A stretch of 64,000 nt of DNA from an uncultured delta proteobacterium. GTDB taxonomy: Bacteria > Myxococcota_A > Polyangia > Polyangiales > Polyangiaceae. Below are positions 35,880-43,676 of the stretch, one piece after another. Made by a program: the position numbers and the translations under genes. Location of the stretch: the NCBI GenBank assembly GCA_963696385.1, contig CAVOKF010000005.1:1344001-1408000 (forward strand), in the 5' to 3' direction. A model generated the notes under the pieces. It saw nothing but the letters and a program-made list of their open reading frames with translations, was not told where the DNA came from and ran no database searches. Each line of letters starts with the position of its first letter. The first letter of the stretch is position 1.

Positions 35880-35908
35880 TTGACGCACTCAGGCCAGGGT
35901 CCTACAAG
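35880..35908 (+). promoter_or_regulatory. Putative sigma70 promoter of the mqn operon
   Basis: TTGACG-N17-TACAAG, 46 nt upstream of the first ATG, which has a GGAGG RBS. Confidence 0.55.
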
Positions 35909-35954
35909 CCGAGTGCGTTCAAATTATTTCGAAGATTGTTGCGGAGGCCCGGCC

Positions 35955-37513
35955 ATGGCGTGGGACGGAATGGGCGCGTTCGTTCGCGCGCTCGAGCAGC
36001 GATCCGAGCTCGTGCGCATTTCTCGGCGCGTGGATCCCAAGCTCGAGGTCTCGGCGATCGCCGATCGCGTCATGAAGGCCGGTGGTCCCGCGTTGCTTTT
36101 TGAAAACGTGGGCGGCTCCCCGTTCCCGCTCCTCATCAATGCCTTCGGGTCACGGGCGCGCATGTCGTTGGCGCTCGGCGTCGATGACATCGAAGACCAT
36201 GCCCGAGCTCTCGCGGAGCTCGTACGACCCCCGGCGGGGGGGCCGGAGGCATCGTGCAGTTGGTTCGCAAGTTGCCTGAACTCGCCCACGTTCCGCCACG
36301 AGCGGCGGCAAATGGGGCGTGCCAGCAGATCGTGAGGTCGGGCGGCGACGTCAACCTCGACGAACTGCCGATTCTGACGTGCTGGCCGGGCGATGGCGGG
36401 CCGTTCATCACTCTTCCTCAGGTCATCACCCGGGACCCGGAAACCGGGGTGCGCAACGTCGGCTGTTATCGCATGCAGAAAATCGATCGGACCAGTACGG
36501 CTCTGCATTGGCAGGTGCACAAGACGGGGGCACGGCACTTTCGCCGAGCGCAGGAGACCGGGGCGTCGCGTCTTGATGTGGCTGTGGCGCTCGGCGGTGA
36601 CCCGGCGCTCACGTACGCCGCGACCGCGCCGCTTCCCGACGGAATCGACGAATGGATGTTCGCGGGGTTCCTCCGCAAGCGGGCGGTGTCGACCGTCCGC
36701 TGCAAGACCATCGACCTCGAGGTGCCGGCCGAGGCCGATTTCGTTCTCGAAGGCTATGTCGATCCGCGAGAGGACCTCGTGGAGGAGGGCCCGTTTGGCG
36801 ACCACACGGGCTACTACACGCCGATCGATCGATTCCCACGATTCCACGTGACGGCCATCACGCGGCGCACGGACGCCGTTTATCCCGCGACGCTGGTCGG
36901 TCCTCCGCCCATGGAAGATGCGTGGCTCGGTAAGGCCACCGAGAGGATGTTTCTCCCTCTGCTCCGAATGCTGTTTCCGGAGATCGTCGATATGAATTTG
37001 CCCGTCGAGGGCGCCTTCCACAACCTCGTTCTCATCTCCATCAAGAAGCAATACCCCCACCACGCCTCCCGGCTCGCCCACGGACTGTGGGGGGCGGGGC
37101 AAATGACGTTCTCGAAGGTCATCTGCGTCGTGGATGACGATGTCGACGTGCAGGACGTCCGGCAAGTGGCATGGCGACTTCTCGCAAACCTCGATCCGAA
37201 GCGTGACGTTGCGTTCGTCGAAGGCCCCATCGATCAGTTGGACCACGGCGCAAGCCAACCGCTTTGGGGGAGCAAGACATGCATCGACGGTACGCGCAAA
37301 TGGAGAGAGGAGGGGTACATGCGTGAGTGGCCGGAGCCCTGCCGCATGAGCGAGGACGTCTTGGCGCGGGTAGCCGCCCTATGGCCCGAACTCGGCCTCG
37401 GGCCGGGGCGAATCCAGCCGGCGCCGTCGGGCAACGGAAAGCATGGAACTTCCACGATGATCGCGCGCGCACTGGTCATCGCGCGCGATCTGCTCGGCGT
37501 GGGTCGAGCATGA
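35955..37513 (+). CDS. ubiD: UbiD-family prFMN decarboxylase of menaquinone synthesis (MqnL; -1 frameshift in G7 at 36236-36242)
   Basis: GPALLFENV, RNVGCYRMQ, EGPFGDHTGYY, GPPPMED. Confidence 0.92.
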
Positions 37514-38241
37514 ATCGCGATCCGATTCCCGACATCCGCGCGCGCCGCGGGGAAGAGGCCGTTCACGGAGCGGCCGCCCAAGGGATGTTCGATCGGATCG
37601 CGCCGACGTACGACGTGCTCAACCGCGTGCTGTCCGCAGGGGTTGACGAGCGCTGGCGCGATCGCGCGGTGGCAATGCTTGCCGGCGCGCCGTCCGGCCC
37701 TGTTCTCGATCTCTGCGCCGGAACGCTCGACCTCGCGGCGCGGATCGAGTCGGCGCGCCCCGGCGACCCCATCGTTGCAGCCGACTTTTCGCGGGCCATG
37801 CTCGAGGCCGGTCGAGCGAAGGCGCCTCGGACCGATCTCGTCGTTGCCGACGCCACCGCGCTTCCCTTTCGAGACGGGGAGTTTTCGGGAGTCGTATGTG
37901 GCTTCGGTATGCGCAATCTAGCGGACCTGGTCCGGGGCACGAACGAGGTGCGGCGGGTGCTCCGGTCGGGGGGCGTGTTCGTAACGCTCGAGCTGTTCCG
38001 GCCGAGTCGCATCGTGACTCGAGCGTTTCATCAAGCCTATGCGAGCATGATCCTGCCGCTGCTCGGAGGTTGGGTCTCCGGCGATCGTGGCGCCTATCGG
38101 TACCTCGCACGGAGCATGGCTGGCTTCTTGACGCGCGAGGAGTACGAGGGCGTCTTGAACCAGGCGGGCTTCCAGCACGTGTTCGGGTTCGATCTGACGC
38201 TCGGCATCGCTTCGATTGTCCGGGCGGAGGTCGGGTCATGA
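37510..38241 (+). CDS. ubiE: Demethylmenaquinone methyltransferase (UbiE/MenG)
   Basis: MFDRIAPTYDVLN, VLDLCAGT, DATALPF, GFGMRN, AYRYL. Confidence 0.93.
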   Translation: MNRDPIPDIRARRGEEAVHGAAAQGMFDRIAPTYDVLNRVLSAGVDERWRDRAVAMLAGAPSGPVLDLCAGTLDLAARIESARPGDPIVAADFSRAMLEAGRAKAPRTDLVVADATALPFRDGEFSGVVCGFGMRNLADLVRGTNEVRRVLRSGGVFVTLELFRPSRIVTRAFHQAYASMILPLLGGWVSGDRGAYRYLARSMAGFLTREEYEGVLNQAGFQHVFGFDLTLGIASIVRAEVGS

Positions 38242-38798
38242 AAAAGAAGATCGTGGTCGGGGTCACGGGCGCGAGCGGCGCAGCGTACGCGCGCCGGTTG
38301 CTCTCGGTCCTGAGCGTCCGCGAGGACGTCGAACTCGGCGTTTGCGTTTCGAAGACGGCGCCCGAAGTCTGGGCGCTGGAGTGCGGGGGGGATCTTCGCG
38401 AAGCGGTGCCGAAGGCGACTTGGGGGCCTCGTGACTACCGGGCGCCGTTCGCGAGCGGAAGTGCGGGCTGGCACGCGATGGTAATCGTGCCCTGCTCCAT
38501 GGGAACCGCGGCCAGGGTGGCACACGGCATCTCGGATACGCTGTTGACGCGAGCGGCCGACGTGATGCTCAAAGAGCGGCGCCCGCTCATCGTCGTGCCC
38601 CGCGAAACACCTCTGAGCGTGGTCCACCTGCAGAATCTTCTCGACCTTGCGCGCGCAGGCGCGCTCGTGTTGCCAGCCATGCCTTCTTTCTACGGCAAGC
38701 CCAACTCGCTCGAGGAAGCCATCGACACGGTGATCGGTCGCGTCCTCGATCATCTGGGTCTCGAGCACCGTTTGGTACGTCGATGGGGTTCCGCGTGA
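38238..38798 (+). CDS. ubiX: Flavin prenyltransferase UbiX (MqnM)
   Basis: VGVTGASG, ASGS, PCSMGT, RAADVMLKERR, PRETPL, PSFY. Confidence 0.96.
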   Translation: MKKKIVVGVTGASGAAYARRLLSVLSVREDVELGVCVSKTAPEVWALECGGDLREAVPKATWGPRDYRAPFASGSAGWHAMVIVPCSMGTAARVAHGISDTLLTRAADVMLKERRPLIVVPRETPLSVVHLQNLLDLARAGALVLPAMPSFYGKPNSLEEAIDTVIGRVLDHLGLEHRLVRRWGSA

Positions 38799-39392
38799 GC
38801 GCGCTCGTGGATCGCGCCATCGATTCGGCCGGCCTCGGCGAGGTGCTTGGGGCCCGGCGCGATGGTGCGCTCGGCGACGCGGAGCTCACGCGGCTTCGCG
38901 AAGCGGATTTGCTGGTCCTCGGCGCGCTTGCCGATCGAGTTCGAGCCCACGAGGTTGGCCCCGAGGTGCGCATCCACGTCCGGGAACCCCCCGCCGATGT
39001 CCCCGCAGACTTCACGTTTCCCGACCCCGGTCGCAACCTCACGGGCCTCGAGCTTTTGCGTGAAATCGCGATTGCGCGCGTGACGGGACCCTTTCGAGCC
39101 TGTGTGAGGGTCGATTGGGTGCGCTGTGGGATGGAGCTCGCGCAGGTGGCGCTCGGGTTCGGAGCCAATGAGCTCGTAGGTACCATCGCCACCAAGCGCG
39201 GCCTTCCGATCGCCGACGGCGAGCTCGTCGGATTCGGGCAAGAAAAGCCGGCGCGAATCGGCTCAGACGGCCAAGCTCAAGGAGCTTGCGGGTTGCATAC
39301 GCCGCGCCGCCCGACGACCCGTGGTCGTCGGGCACGAGCACGAGGTCGAATTCATGGACGGCGCGTCCCCCATCCAGGAGAAGACGGGATGA
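38795..39392 (+). CDS. Truncated MqnE-like protein lacking the radical-SAM core (+1 frameshift near 39233)
   Basis: About 198 aa after repair. Matches only the N- and C-terminal segments of the adjacent MqnE and has no CxxxCxxC. GTGA and ATGA overlaps on the two sides. Confidence 0.7.
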
Positions 39393-40537
39393 TCGAGGCG
39401 ATCGGCGAGAAGGTCGTGCGCGGCGAGCGCCTCACGTTCGACGACGGGCTCGCCCTTTTCCGGCACCCGGACGTCGTCGCGATTGGACAGCTCGCCAACC
39501 GGGTCCGTGAGCGGATGCATGGGGATCGGACGTATTTCAATCGCAACATGCGCATCGAGGTGACCAACGTGTGCGTTGCCTCGTGTCTATTTTGCTCGTT
39601 CGCCAAGCTCGAGGAGGGTGGCCCGGGGGCACGCACGATGAGCCACGTGGAAGCGTGGCGGGAGCTCGAGGCACGCATGGACGATCCACCGGGCGAGATC
39701 CACATCGTCAACGGGCTGCATCCGAGGCTGCCATTTTCCTACTACGAGGAGCTTTTGACCGGCTTCAAACGCATCAAGCCGGACGTTCACTTGAAGTGTT
39801 TCACCGCCGTTGAAATTCATTTTTTCGCGCGGCACTTCGGCATGAGCTACGAAGTGGTGCTCGATTGTCTGCGCGCCGCGGGGCTCGACAGCTTGCCCGG
39901 CGGCGGCGCGGAGATTTTTCACCCGGAGGTGCGCAGCCGAATCGCGCACGACAAGGCTACCGCCGACGAGTATCTCGACGTGCACCGTGTCGCGCACGGG
40001 ATGGGTATGCGAACGAATACAACGATGCTCTACGGTCACGTCGAGACGTTCGAGCACAGAGTCGACCACCTACTGCGGCTCCGCGCACTGCAGGACGAGT
40101 CCCGTGGCCAGCAGGCGTTCATCCCCCTGGCGTTTCACCCGGACGGCAACGGGATGCGCAATCTTCCGGCGCCCACGGCAATGGATGCGCTGCGAACGAT
40201 CGCGGTATCGCGTCTCGTGCTCGACAACGTCCCCCACATCAAAGCCTATTGGGTGAGCATGACTCCCGAGGTGGCCCAGATCGCGCTGCGATTCGGCGCG
40301 GACGACCTCGACGGGACCATCGTGCACGAGACGATCTACCGAGCCGCGGGGTCGCGCTCGCCGGGTGCCATGACGGTTGCGCAACTGGTGCGGCTCATCC
40401 ACGAGGCCGGCCGCATTCCAGTCGAGCGCGACAGCCTTTATCGAGTCGTGCGCGAGCATCCGCGCGCGTCGGTGGCCGAGGCCGCGCTCAAGGTGCGCGA
40501 CCGCAATGCCCGAAGGCACCTCGAGGTGTCGTCGTGA
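39389..40537 (+). CDS. mqnE: Aminofutalosine synthase MqnE (radical SAM)
   Basis: TNVCVASCLFC, GLHP, FTAVEI, PGGGAEIF, MLYGHVE, HIKAYWV, FGADDLDGT. Confidence 0.9.
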   Translation: MIEAIGEKVVRGERLTFDDGLALFRHPDVVAIGQLANRVRERMHGDRTYFNRNMRIEVTNVCVASCLFCSFAKLEEGGPGARTMSHVEAWRELEARMDDPPGEIHIVNGLHPRLPFSYYEELLTGFKRIKPDVHLKCFTAVEIHFFARHFGMSYEVVLDCLRAAGLDSLPGGGAEIFHPEVRSRIAHDKATADEYLDVHRVAHGMGMRTNTTMLYGHVETFEHRVDHLLRLRALQDESRGQQAFIPLAFHPDGNGMRNLPAPTAMDALRTIAVSRLVLDNVPHIKAYWVSMTPEVAQIALRFGADDLDGTIVHETIYRAAGSRSPGAMTVAQLVRLIHEAGRIPVERDSLYRVVREHPRASVAEAALKVRDRNARRHLEVSS

Positions 40538-42432
40538 GCCAGCCTCGGCTGCGCGTAGCGGCCGTTGGCTTTCTAAACGCACGTCCGCTCTACGAAGGGC
40601 TGGACCGGGAGCCCGCTCGCGCTCGAATGCGCCTCGATTGTGGCGTTCCGAGCGAGGTGGCTCGTCGAGTCGCGGAGGACGAAGCCGACTTGGGGTTGAT
40701 GCCCGTCGCCGCCGCGGCGACCCTCGGCGACCTGCGGATGGTGCGCGGCTGCGCCATCGGAGCGAAGGGTGCCGTTCGCAGCATCTTGATCGTGGGCGAG
40801 GAGCCCGTCGATGCGCTCGAAGAGATCGCCATCGACCTGTCTTCGCGCACGAGCGTCGTGCTGGCGCGACTGATCCTTCGCGCGAGAAATCGGGGGCGCG
40901 AGCCGCGCCTGGTGGGCAAAGAACACGGCGATGCGGTGCAAAGTGTCTCGGGCAAGCGAGGCGCGCTGGTGATCGGCGATCCGGCTCTCGAGATCGAGGG
41001 GCGCTTTGCTCATGGGATCGATCTCGCCCAGGCGTGGCGGGAATGGACCGGGTTGCCTTTCGTATTCGCGGCATGGTGCGGTCGGGCAGGCGCGCTCTCG
41101 GCGGATGACGAGGATTTCATCGCTGCCGCAAAGATCGCCGGACTCGAGCGGCGCGACCAAATCGCGGACGAGCATGCTGCGCGCACCGGGCTGAAGTCCG
41201 CCTCCCTGCGCTCCTATCTGCGAGACGCGGTCCACTACGAGTTCGGCGACGAAGAGCGTCGCGGTTTGGAGCATTTTTACGACAAGGCTGCGCGCGCGGG
41301 TTTGTTGCCCCGAGCGCGCGTGCGCTTCTTCGACGACGACCGGCGCAACGCGTCCTTGCGCTCATCGCTCGACACTCTTCTGTCGAGCGCGGCCGCGGGC
41401 GATCGGCTGAGCGCCGCCGATGGAGAGCGGCTCCACGCCGAGGCGTCGTTGTTCGATCTGGGGCTGGCCGCGGATGCAGTGCGGCGACGAAAGCACCCGG
41501 CCGACGTCGTCACGTACATCGTGGACCGAAACGTGAACTACACCAACGTTTGCACGACGAGCTGCCGCTTTTGTGCGTTTTACCGGCCGATCGGGCACGC
41601 CGAGGCGTGGGTTCTTTCGCGTGAAGAGCTTGCGAACAAGCTCCAAGAAGTCGTCGATGCCGGCGGCGTGCAGATCCTTCTCCAGGGCGGACTGCACCCC
41701 GAACTGCGCATCGAGTGGTACGAAGACCTATTTCGTTGGATCAAGCGCGACTTCGGGCTGGGTCTGCACGCGTTGTCACCCGAGGAGATTTTGCACATCG
41801 GCCGTCTCGAGGGTCTGCCTGTCCGCGGTGTACTCGAGCGGCTCCATGCCGCGGGCCTCGATAGCGTCCCGGGAGGCGGAGCAGAGATTCTCGTGGACCG
41901 CGTGCGACGAAAGATCGCGAAGGCGAAGTGCAGCAGCGACCAATGGCTTGGGGTCATGCGGGTCGCTCACCACATGGGCTTGCGTTCGAGCGCAACGATG
42001 ATGTACGGCACGGTCGACACCGCGCGCGATCGGATCGGTCACCTCGTCAAGGTTCGCGACCTTCAGGACGAGACCGGGGGGTTCACGGCGTTCTTTTGTT
42101 GGGACTTCCAGCACGAGCGCGGAACTCGCATCGAGCCAGGTGACACCGGTACGGTGCTTTACCTGCGCCAGCAGGCCGTAGCGCGCATCATGCTCGACAA
42201 CGTAGATCACGTCGGCGCGTCCTGGGTGACGCAGGGTCCGGAGGTGGGTCAAGTGGCCCTCCGCTTCGGCGCGGACGACTTCGGCAGCGTCATGTTCGAA
42301 GAAAATGTGGTGTCGAGCGCGGGGACCACGTTCTGCATGAACGCGTCCGCAATGGAGCATCGCATCCGCGCGGCCGGCTTCAAGGCTGCGCGGCGAAACG
42401 TACACTACGAGTGGCTCACCACGCCGTCGTGA
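40534..42432 (+). CDS. mqnC: Fused chorismate dehydratase MqnA - cyclic dehypoxanthine futalosine synthase MqnC
   Basis: N-half FLNARPL, SRTSVVL, LVIGDPAL, TGLPFVFAAW (MqnA). C-half DRNVNYTNVCTTSCRFCAFYR, LLQGG, FGADDFGSVMFEENVV (MqnC). Confidence 0.9.
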   Translation: MSQPRLRVAAVGFLNARPLYEGLDREPARARMRLDCGVPSEVARRVAEDEADLGLMPVAAAATLGDLRMVRGCAIGAKGAVRSILIVGEEPVDALEEIAIDLSSRTSVVLARLILRARNRGREPRLVGKEHGDAVQSVSGKRGALVIGDPALEIEGRFAHGIDLAQAWREWTGLPFVFAAWCGRAGALSADDEDFIAAAKIAGLERRDQIADEHAARTGLKSASLRSYLRDAVHYEFGDEERRGLEHFYDKAARAGLLPRARVRFFDDDRRNASLRSSLDTLLSSAAAGDRLSAADGERLHAEASLFDLGLAADAVRRRKHPADVVTYIVDRNVNYTNVCTTSCRFCAFYRPIGHAEAWVLSREELANKLQEVVDAGGVQILLQGGLHPELRIEWYEDLFRWIKRDFGLGLHALSPEEILHIGRLEGLPVRGVLERLHAAGLDSVPGGGAEILVDRVRRKIAKAKCSSDQWLGVMRVAHHMGLRSSATMMYGTVDTARDRIGHLVKVRDLQDETGGFTAFFCWDFQHERGTRIEPGDTGTVLYLRQQAVARIMLDNVDHVGASWVTQGPEVGQVALRFGADDFGSVMFEENVVSSAGTTFCMNASAMEHRIRAAGFKAARRNVHYEWLTTPS

Positions 42433-43676
42433 GGCTGGCTCGGATGCGCGCCGTACACGCTGAGGCTGTGGTCACGGGCGACGGGAACGCGATTCGCGAC
42501 GCCGCCGTCGTCGTCGATTCGCGCGGCGAGGTCGTCGACGTCGGTCCTGCCGGCGAAGTTCTCCCGCGCCACGGTGGCATCGATGTCGAGCGAGCCCGCG
42601 GCGTGTTGCTGCCCGGGCTCGTCAACGCGCACACCCATTTGGAGCTGAGTGCTTTGCGCGGGCGCGTGCCCGGGGGTGCGGGCTTCGTTCCCTGGGTGGA
42701 GCACCTCATCGGGGCGCGGATCGAGTCGCATCCGGAAGAGGACGCGGACGCGATCGAGCGTGCAGTCGATGAGCTCGATGCGTTCGGCACCGTTGCCGTC
42801 GGCGAGGTGACGAATTCTCTTGGAGCCGTCCGAACGCTCGCTCGCCGAGGTTTTATTGGTTGCATATTCCACGAAGTCTTCGGCGTCGATGCCGATTCCG
42901 TCGAACGGCGAGTCGCCGCGCTGCCTCGCATTCTCGAGGAGCGCGTTGGCGAATGGCCGTCCTCGCAATTGGCCTATGCACCCACTCCGCATACCTTGTA
43001 CACGACGCACGAGAGCGTCGTACGTCGTCTTGTAAGAGACGCGCGCGAGAGCAACGCGCGTGCGAGCGTCCATCTCGCCGAGCATGCGCCGGAAAGACGC
43101 TTTCTCGAACACGGGGACGGTCCCATCCGGACCTGGTACGAACAGCGGCTGAAACTGCGTCCAGAGAGCATCCACTGGCCGGGCAAGGCTCCGGTTGCGC
43201 TTGCGGACGAGTGGGGCGTGCTCGCCTCCCATGTGATCTGCGTGCATATGACCGATGCGCGTCCAGACGAACTCGACCTGGTCGCTCGGCGAGGTGCACC
43301 GCTCGTGTTTTGTCCGCGCTCGAACCTGTTCATCGAGACGCGGCTGCCCCCTTTGCTCGCCGCGCGCGCGGCGGGAATCGTCGCGGCACTGGGTACCGAC
43401 TCGCTGGCCTCGAACGGATCATTGGACGTGCTCGCGGAGGCGCGCGCGCTTTCGGATCGGTTTCCGACTGTGCCTGCGACGGAGCTCGTACGCATGGCCA
43501 CCTGGGAGGGCGCCCGCGCGTTGGGTCTGCCGGGCATTGGCCGCATCGCACGGGGCGCGCATCCCGGGATCTTTCTCATCGAGGGTCAACCGGACGGGGA
43601 CCCGTGTGCATTCGTCCTCGCCAACGTGCGAGCGTCGCGTCGGTGGGTCGCGCGCCGCTCGGAGAGCGGACGATGA
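42429..43676 (+). CDS. Amidohydrolase, probable aminodeoxyfutalosine deaminase
   Basis: PGLVNAHTHLE, VHLAE, CPRSN, LGTDS metal motifs; mqn operon context. Confidence 0.8.
   Translation: MRLARMRAVHAEAVVTGDGNAIRDAAVVVDSRGEVVDVGPAGEVLPRHGGIDVERARGVLLPGLVNAHTHLELSALRGRVPGGAGFVPWVEHLIGARIESHPEEDADAIERAVDELDAFGTVAVGEVTNSLGAVRTLARRGFIGCIFHEVFGVDADSVERRVAALPRILEERVGEWPSSQLAYAPTPHTLYTTHESVVRRLVRDARESNARASVHLAEHAPERRFLEHGDGPIRTWYEQRLKLRPESIHWPGKAPVALADEWGVLASHVICVHMTDARPDELDLVARRGAPLVFCPRSNLFIETRLPPLLAARAAGIVAALGTDSLASNGSLDVLAEARALSDRFPTVPATELVRMATWEGARALGLPGIGRIARGAHPGIFLIEGQPDGDPCAFVLANVRASRRWVARRSESGR

Follow-up and report, generated by a model that had tools for sequence, protein, structure and literature searches.

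A gene concealed between ubiX and mqnE

The window, a stretch of 64,000 nucleotides of contig CAVOKF010000005.1 from an uncultured delta proteobacterium, carries on its forward strand a menaquinone operon of the futalosine pathway in which successive genes overlap by an NTGA tetranucleotide. Three of its genes were assigned with curated models: a ubiX-type flavin prenyltransferase gene (38238–38798; Pfam Flavoprotein and NCBIfam UbiX), a complete mqnE encoding aminofutalosine synthase with its CxxxCxxC motif (39389–40537; 466 bits against a TIGR03700 cut-off of 434.55, and E 1e-101 against PDB 6XI9), and a fused mqnA-mqnC gene (40534–42432), in which the Pfam domains VitK2_biosynth, Radical_SAM, and CofH_C lie in one frame and NCBIfam MqnC scores 453.8 bits. 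Between the first two lies a further gene, termed here mini-MqnE, which extends over 38795–39392 on the forward strand and encodes 198 residues once a single extra base is omitted. Six successive NTGA overlaps were found in the window, at the junctions ubiD-like/ubiE, ubiE/ubiX, ubiX/mini-MqnE, mini-MqnE/mqnE, mqnE/mqnA-mqnC, and mqnA-mqnC/aminofutalosine-deaminase-like hydrolase. The GTG start of mini-MqnE overlaps the ubiX stop (GTGA, 38795–38798) and its TGA stop overlaps the mqnE start (ATGA, 39389–39392), and the GTGA at the start of mqnA-mqnC overlaps the mqnE stop. A gene for about 198 residues with such overlaps on both sides had been proposed in an earlier note on this DNA, and both its extent and its junctions are borne out.

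The ORF listing hides this gene, as had also been claimed: it reports a single 584-aa frame (38783–40537), which begins shortly ahead of the stop of the ubiX-type gene and absorbs mini-MqnE as an N-terminal extension of mqnE. Read in frame 1 from the GTG at 38795, the DNA encodes 147 residues of plausible protein and thereafter becomes Arg/Gly-rich as far as the start of mqnE, while a second frame over the Arg/Gly-rich stretch reads ...KKSRRESAQTAKLKELAGCIRRAARRPVVVGHEHEVEFMDGASPIQEKTG and stops at 39390–39392, inside the ATGA. Removal of the extra T of the TT at 39233–39234 joins both frames into 199 codons, corresponding to 198 residues and a stop, and the closest relative, genome G003 (94% protein identity), carries an intact ortholog of 198 residues. 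The repair of one nucleotide that had been placed at 39231–39235 is thus located to this dinucleotide.

The TT reads as a single T in near-identical DNA, so that the apparent frameshift corresponds to a one-base insertion. Alignment with G003 indicated one surplus base in the window near 39233–39238. Public contigs were compared over 38700–39700, and those of the runs X1, X4, and X10, which come from three studies, each lack one letter at 39233 (the contig of X7 does not reach the site). The X1 contig shows no further difference over these 1001 bases, and X1 may be the source sample. No RNA run was among the 20 sequencing runs retrieved for this sequence. In addition, a recorded 202-aa protein, P0004, is made up of the 150 residues of the window before the break, an S, and the 51 residues after it. 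Since the contigs of three runs lack the T and an intact matching protein is recorded, the extra T is best read as an assembly error, namely a consensus error, or at most a change private to this assembly. A further indel of one base interrupts the ubiD-like decarboxylase gene approximately 3 kb upstream, where a base near 36236 is missing from the window; this base is present in G003, whose ubiD-like gene reads in one frame. Broken mqnE frames were also observed in the assemblies of other relatives (L008, L028/L096, and L098).

Conservation and selective constraint

Within the same genus, a full-length match to mini-MqnE was found in 22 of 24 genomes, at 52–94% identity; the remaining two genomes (66% and 92% complete) gave only weak matches of the kind that MqnE and MqnC give. 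The loci of 19 relatives were fetched, and 17 of them contain an open gene of 181–217 aa that ends at mqnE. One of the two others is cut by a contig end, and the tail of the other one is garbled, in an assembly that is prone to errors and whose mqnE is broken as well.

The strength of selection was estimated by the Nei-Gojobori method on 18 same-genus loci, giving 153 pairs, after L008 (frame errors) and L022 (partial) had been dropped; L007, from genome G010, which is flagged as unpublished, is among the 18 loci, and no figure rests on it alone. The median dN/dS is 0.32 for mini-MqnE, against 0.14 for ubiX and 0.11 for mqnE, and the three closest pairs of mini-MqnE give 0.14, 0.13, and 0.20. 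Mini-MqnE is under purifying selection, yet the constraint on it is weaker than that on its neighbours, whose rate of evolution it exceeds two- to threefold. Conservation of length and position together with a dN/dS below 1 had been put forward in the earlier note as a test of the gene, and this is the pattern observed, the open loci of 181–217 aa lying always upstream of mqnE.

We conclude that 38795–39392 is a genuine separate protein-coding gene, neither an extension of mqnE nor a decaying duplicate, and that the 584-aa "long MqnE" is an artefact of the assembly. Two other readings of the locus in this genome, a pseudogene in decay and a genuine N-terminal extension of MqnE, would agree with the single 584-aa frame of the window as assembled and with the presence of a second single-base indel in the operon, but either is scarcely credible in view of the near-identical contigs without the extra base and of the intact recorded protein. 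Moreover, the stretch from the break to mqnE is Arg/Gly-rich in the fused frame and forms conserved protein in the other one, and all relatives have a stop ahead of mqnE. That the gene is not a recent broken duplicate had likewise been anticipated, and intactness in relatives, purifying selection, and the contigs lacking the extra T all agree with it.

A translated spacer, which would merely couple the translation of ubiX to that of mqnE and whose protein would have no function, was also considered. In its favour, 4-nt overlaps are common at either end of the gene, and the rate of mini-MqnE exceeds that of its neighbours; a functionless product is nevertheless very improbable with a dN/dS well below 1, a confidently predicted fold (see below), and near-invariant motifs that persist across families down to 34–40% identity. 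Lineages without mini-MqnE place mqnE 30–100 nt after ubiX, which indicates that no spacer is needed.

Linkage to mqnE and distribution

Every match to mini-MqnE lies directly upstream of mqnE. In a survey of the junctions of 60 distinct full-length mini-MqnE genes, the 4-nt NTGA overlap with ubiX was present in 47 of the 57 measurable loci, and the spacing between mini-MqnE and mqnE ranged from -20 to +62 nt, with -4 in 20 and -8 in 10 of the 56 measurable loci.

In an even sample of 201 genomes of the order, mini-MqnE was detected in 40, belonging to the families f1, f3, f4, f11, f15, f19, and f22 (G051, whose match is MqnE itself, is excluded from this count). MqnE scores above its curated cut-off in 51 of the 201 genomes, and 38 of these 51 carry mini-MqnE. 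Conversely, 38 of the 40 mini-positive genomes have a passing MqnE, the other two being fragmented at that spot, and among the 150 genomes without a passing MqnE, mini-MqnE occurs only in these two fragmented assemblies. A sample of 401 genomes of the phylum gave 16 positive genomes, all from the same order. A seventeenth match was discarded: it covers only positions 74–141 and lies within a 412-aa frame, which is the pattern of the full enzyme.

Of the 51 genomes of this order sample with a passing MqnE, 13 showed no mini-MqnE. They comprise every genome of family f7 (ten), two genomes of family f3, and a single genome in which the contig starts at mqnE. Four mini-less genomes were examined, and in them approximately 30–100 nt separate ubiX from the mqnE that follows it, with the remaining operon order unchanged. 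Because 13 MqnE-bearing genomes of the order showed none, mini-MqnE is an accessory component and not a core step of the pathway or a general requirement of the MqnE/MqnC machinery. The earlier note had taken the product for a dead accessory or scaffold subunit of this machinery: a conserved paralog without the core stands, whereas a general need for it does not. In a quick tree of MqnE, the base is unsettled and the four mini-less rows need 3 label changes; a single origin of mini-MqnE with later losses may be compatible with its well-supported branches. One mini-less genome of family f3 groups with the mini-bearing genomes of that family, which suggests a loss there.

Larger collections were searched as well. 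Among species-representative genomes, 54 loci were confirmed, labelled Polyangiaceae, Polyangiales, Myxococcales, Sandaracinaceae, or undefined delta- or proteobacterial metagenome-assembled genomes; one metagenome-assembled genome among them bears the label Nannocystis exedens. In a library of 1.84 billion protein representatives, 81 were retrieved at E≤1e-30 and 207 at E≤1e-10, and nearly all of the best 150 are 60–250 aa long. A search of 5.8 billion proteins returned 543 relatives of similar length. For 10 distant representatives, the clusters to which they belong yielded no names of taxa. All members found belong to uncultured metagenome-assembled genomes.

Among longer proteins (7999 candidates scored, 2 matches), no convincing natural fusion of mini-MqnE to MqnE was found. 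Both matches are frame-shifted gene calls, one running from ubiX into the mini-MqnE gene and the other from the mini-MqnE gene through an out-of-frame mqnE. The 490-aa protein P0163, with mini-MqnE and MqnE in one frame, was set aside as a natural fusion, its own C-terminus being garbled and its origin a single 2.4-kb contig. Streptomyces coelicolor likewise has a gene, SCO4493, placed between ubiX and mqnE, and it was rejected as a counterpart of mini-MqnE because it is described as an AsnC-family transcription factor (PMC3784963).

Sequence relation of mini-MqnE to MqnE

Mini-MqnE is composed of two segments that resemble the two ends of MqnE, joined by a short linker. The first 147 residues align to MqnE by BLASTP with an E value of 1e-10 and 31% identity. 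The 51-aa tail alone gave no BLASTP alignment to MqnE, and its likeness required profile comparison to be detected. Profiles were therefore compared with hhalign, using 56 mini-MqnE and 42 MqnE proteins. The C-terminal segment (39032–39329), inside which the frameshift falls, corresponds to the CofH_C region of MqnE: residues 84–182 of mini-MqnE align with MqnE residues 259–346 at a probability of 97.1% and an E value of 5e-11. The alignment takes in the C-terminal helix and strand, where the tail KELAGCIRRAARRPV of mini-MqnE faces QLVRLIHEAGRIPV of MqnE. When the N-terminal 68 residues were compared, residues 22–64 aligned with MqnE residues 6–50, which run from the helices into strand β1, at a probability of 92% and an E value of 6.6e-7; this N-terminal segment is encoded at 38846–38974. 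A second, weak stretch also recurs in the hmmsearch matches on MqnE ORFs. Likeness to MqnE at both ends, as read by eye in the earlier note, is hence recovered by three alignments, all of them better than chance.

In place of the radical-SAM core of about 200 residues, mini-MqnE has a linker (38978–39031) that is variable in length, rich in indels, and devoid of conserved columns among relatives (alignments A2 and A3). Neither the alignments nor the profiles gave a counterpart in mini-MqnE of MqnE residues ~51–258, including Cys62, Cys66, and Cys69, so that the absence of the CxxxCxxC loop and of the SAM-binding barrel, the most striking point of the earlier note, holds. The CxxxCxxC motif that serves as a test of radical-SAM membership is missing from mini-MqnE, and in the alignment of 56 mini-MqnE sequences no column contains Cys in more than 32% or His in more than 30% of the members.

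The family models gave a consistent picture. Pfam PF04055 (Radical_SAM), the domain with the SAM-binding strands β2–β6, has no match in the 147-aa N-terminal part, and its sole match in the 584-aa fused frame covers residues 258–431, inside MqnE proper. Pfam CofH_C (PF19288) scores 21.4 bits on the first 147 residues, below its gathering score of 27; the conserved block TGLELLRE...VDW...ELAQVALGFGA.EL.G of mini-MqnE aligns to model positions 28–77. PF19288, the C-terminal region of CofH and MqnC, is known in these enzymes and in related ones of the BioB, ThiH, and HydE type, and in mini-MqnE it occurs without an attached radical-SAM domain. The NCBIfam MqnE model TIGR03700 reaches only 38.5 bits, against a cut-off of 434.55, over model positions 257–312, and ranks first among the partial NCBIfam matches, above MqnC and CofH. 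Mini-MqnE as such is covered by none of the curated families of Pfam and NCBIfam.

The retained C-terminal region has diverged at the positions that are fixed in the enzyme. Within MqnE residues 259–346, 13 of the 34 invariant columns keep their residue as the majority residue in mini-MqnE, and most of the invariant acidic and polar residues are lost, including Asp266, Asp279, His283, Lys285, Asp305, Asp306, Asp308, Glu314, and Tyr317. Judged from these comparisons, mini-MqnE is an MqnE paralog without the whole radical-SAM core and is catalytically dead: since Cys62, Cys66, Cys69, and the SAM-binding strands have no counterpart, the protein is ruled out as a radical-SAM enzyme and cannot bind a cluster or SAM in the manner of these enzymes.

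Predicted fold of mini-MqnE

AlphaFold2, run on the alignment of 56 sequences, returned a model with a mean pLDDT of 89.2 and a pTM of 0.86, in which four N-terminal helices are followed by alternating strands and helices. The best solved matches of this model in Foldseek are the MqnE entries 6xig and 6xi9 (E 4.5e-4 over ~100 columns), followed by ThiH, PylB, and BioB. Comparison with 48,161 chains by VIA-align also placed 6xi9_A at the top, with a Z-score of 11.1 and an r.m.s. deviation of 4.1 on 170 aligned residues. In this superimposition, residues 3–193 of the model map onto residues -4 to 380 of 6xi9_A, from end to end, and the middle of MqnE is skipped. The runners-up BioB, HydE, PylB, and ThiH have Z-scores of 8.5–9.8 (7.4–9.8 when HydG and NosL are included), and unrelated barrels score approximately 5.

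According to the model, the product of the gene appears to be the outer shell of MqnE, apparently still able to fold. MqnE itself (TIGR03700; 6XI9 and 6XIG, from Pedobacter heparinus) is therefore the closest known relative on three counts, as it resembles mini-MqnE at both ends, is the best structural match, and is encoded by the adjacent gene; it differs from mini-MqnE in possessing residues ~51–258, in the score against its own family model, and in the invariant columns of the C-terminal region. Mini-MqnE can be regarded as a natural experiment in enzyme reduction, in which a (β/α) barrel has been deprived of its catalytic middle.

Proposed origin and role

Taken together, these data indicate that mini-MqnE is probably a pseudoenzyme paralog made by excision of the catalytic core, to which a role can be assigned by inference. 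It would most likely have arisen by tandem duplication of mqnE, after which the central ~200 residues, with the iron-sulfur cluster loop and the SAM-binding strands, would have been lost. What was left, the N-terminal helices with strand β1, the closing part of the barrel with its strands and helices, and the C-terminal subdomain, would form a compact "MqnE shell", co-produced with MqnE from the overlapping-gene chain of the operon. We propose that this shell binds MqnE in the way a pseudoenzyme subunit would and that it modulates or stabilises the enzyme, both the binding and the effect being deduced from the genes and the models.

Mini-MqnE resembles the pseudoenzyme partners of active paralogs in its derivation from the neighbouring enzyme, its catalytic loss, its purifying selection, and its predicted co-expression. 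Most described pseudoenzymes retain the full fold and have suffered point losses, whereas in mini-MqnE the whole catalytic core is gone. We know of no subunit without cluster or SAM that is derived from a radical-SAM enzyme, and a record-level search of the literature on MqnE, on radical-SAM pseudoenzymes, and on the futalosine pathway in myxobacteria found neither a core-less paralog nor a partner of MqnE.

The pairing with MqnE, the sole partner modelled, was examined by complex prediction with a separate alignment for each chain. The median score was 0.54, whereas the highest of three controls scored 0.00; this speaks weakly for the pairing, in a range that is more often wrong than right unless the pairing is likely beforehand. 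In the calibration of this score, 116 of 157 solved complexes and 2 of 215 mismatched pairs attain the mark, but at values of 0.60 or less only 18 of the 157 solved complexes do so, together with both of the passing mismatches. At least 75% of the contacts are common to the runs, and the pLDDT of the partner is at least 72. The predicted complex may recall the MqnE homodimer, because the crystal entries of MqnE (2 entries, 4 chains) hold two chains each. The idea that this catalytically dead MqnE derivative acts as a noncatalytic partner, which binds MqnE and modulates or stabilises it, stands in our judgement at an even balance.

A different partner within the same pathway is a further reading of this conserved gene. 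Mini-MqnE might act other than through MqnE, by binding an intermediate (the product of MqnA, or aminofutalosine) or by docking on MqnA-MqnC in order to pass intermediates between steps 1, 2, and 4. It lies in the same operon and is coupled to the whole overlapping chain, including the mqnA-mqnC fusion, its retained C-terminal region is common to MqnE, MqnC, and CofH, and the complex score of 0.54 for MqnE leaves room for another partner. The loss of most MqnE-invariant polar residues from the retained region argues, however, against a kept substrate pocket, and mini-MqnE is always found beside mqnE, so that we consider this alternative rather unlikely.

Contact with MqnE could also serve inhibition. 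Dominant-negative small paralogs typically possess interaction-competent ends and no catalytic core, and a regulatory microprotein of this type would keep the contact surfaces of MqnE and tune the menaquinone flux by forming inactive heterodimers. The architecture of mini-MqnE fits such a protein, as do its absence from some lineages that keep the pathway and the weak support for contact with MqnE in the complex prediction; obligatory co-translation from overlapping genes would, on the other hand, impose a fixed and not a regulated ratio of both chains, and we hold inhibition to be improbable.

Returning to the noncatalytic partner of MqnE, a more specific version can be offered tentatively, with the doubts outweighing the support: the MqnE shell might serve the futalosine pathway of Polyangiales as a dedicated subunit, which heterodimerises through the self-association surfaces of MqnE and either gates the access of reductant or substrate or tethers MqnE to MqnA-MqnC in a menaquinone metabolon. 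The enzymes that make menaquinone by the futalosine pathway are regarded as a fixed set, with MqnE assumed to act alone, and mini-MqnE represents an additional conserved gene wedged against mqnE in Polyangiales, an order of soil myxobacteria. If the binding to MqnE is true, it would provide a handle on the stabilisation or control of this unusual radical-addition enzyme and constitute the first case of a pseudo-subunit derived from a radical-SAM enzyme.

The relatives of mini-MqnE, where they are named at all, are recorded as hypothetical protein or, at JGI, as "2-iminoacetate synthase ThiH", and the family needs a dedicated model for annotation pipelines to stop fusing or mislabelling it. As a possible lead, the ESM Atlas contains a cluster of 167-aa proteins (score 0.93), mostly from Actinomycetota, of which 34% carry CofH_C.

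A chain of overlapping genes from ubiD-like to hydrolase

The operon runs in the order ubiD-like, ubiE, ubiX, mini-MqnE (the core-less MqnE paralog), mqnE, mqnA-mqnC and deaminase-like hydrolase, and its six successive junctions, at positions 37510, 38238, 38795, 39389, 40534 and 42429, are all NTGA overlaps of start and stop codons, with the start codons placed from homology and from the ends of the open reading frames. Six such overlaps in succession suggest, at the level of sequence, that the whole operon forms a single translationally coupled chain.

The first gene of the chain, a UbiD-type decarboxylase of the menaquinone pathway (35880-37513), is split near position 36236. The ORF at 36254-37513 corresponds to positions 96-433 of the NCBIfam profile TIGR03701, which describes this type of decarboxylase, while the N-terminal part lies in a different frame (ORF 35880-36335). 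Near 36236 the window is one base short of the genome of the closest relative, G003, in which the same gene is uninterrupted in a single frame. This missing base is probably a second consensus indel of the operon, besides the extra T in the mini gene.

Assemblies of several relatives also show mqnE or the mini gene in pieces across different frames, at loci L008 (genome G005), L028/L096 (genome G012) and L098. These breaks appear to be indels introduced by assembly and not signs of decay, since the genes are intact in neighbouring species.

The mqnA-mqnC gene (40534-42432) encodes one protein that combines MqnA, the chorismate dehydratase (Pfam VitK2_biosynth), with the radical SAM enzyme MqnC, so that the first and fourth steps of the futalosine pathway are united in a single polypeptide. 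Many relatives have long open frames at the equivalent position, which suggests that such a fusion is widespread in the order. In genomes of family f7, the deaminase-like gene directly follows mqnA and mqnC is located elsewhere. The last gene of the operon encodes an amidohydrolase (42411-43676); among NCBIfam models it matches that of aminofutalosine deaminase best, with a sub-threshold score of 144 bits (cut-off 320). This best match hints that aminofutalosine is converted to futalosine in these organisms.

Related proteins outside the operon

A third MqnE/MqnC/CofH-class member of the genome lies on another contig, outside the window (G000:C4:464733-465800); it scores 312 bits against the MqnE model, below the cut-off, and is a putative CofH or other member of the class. 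By language-model features (score 0.93), the mini protein resembles an ESM Atlas cluster whose members are hypothetical proteins of 167 aa, most of them found in Actinomycetota. CofH_C is present on 34% of its members, and the cluster may represent a core-less CofH_C family in another phylum, either independent or related.
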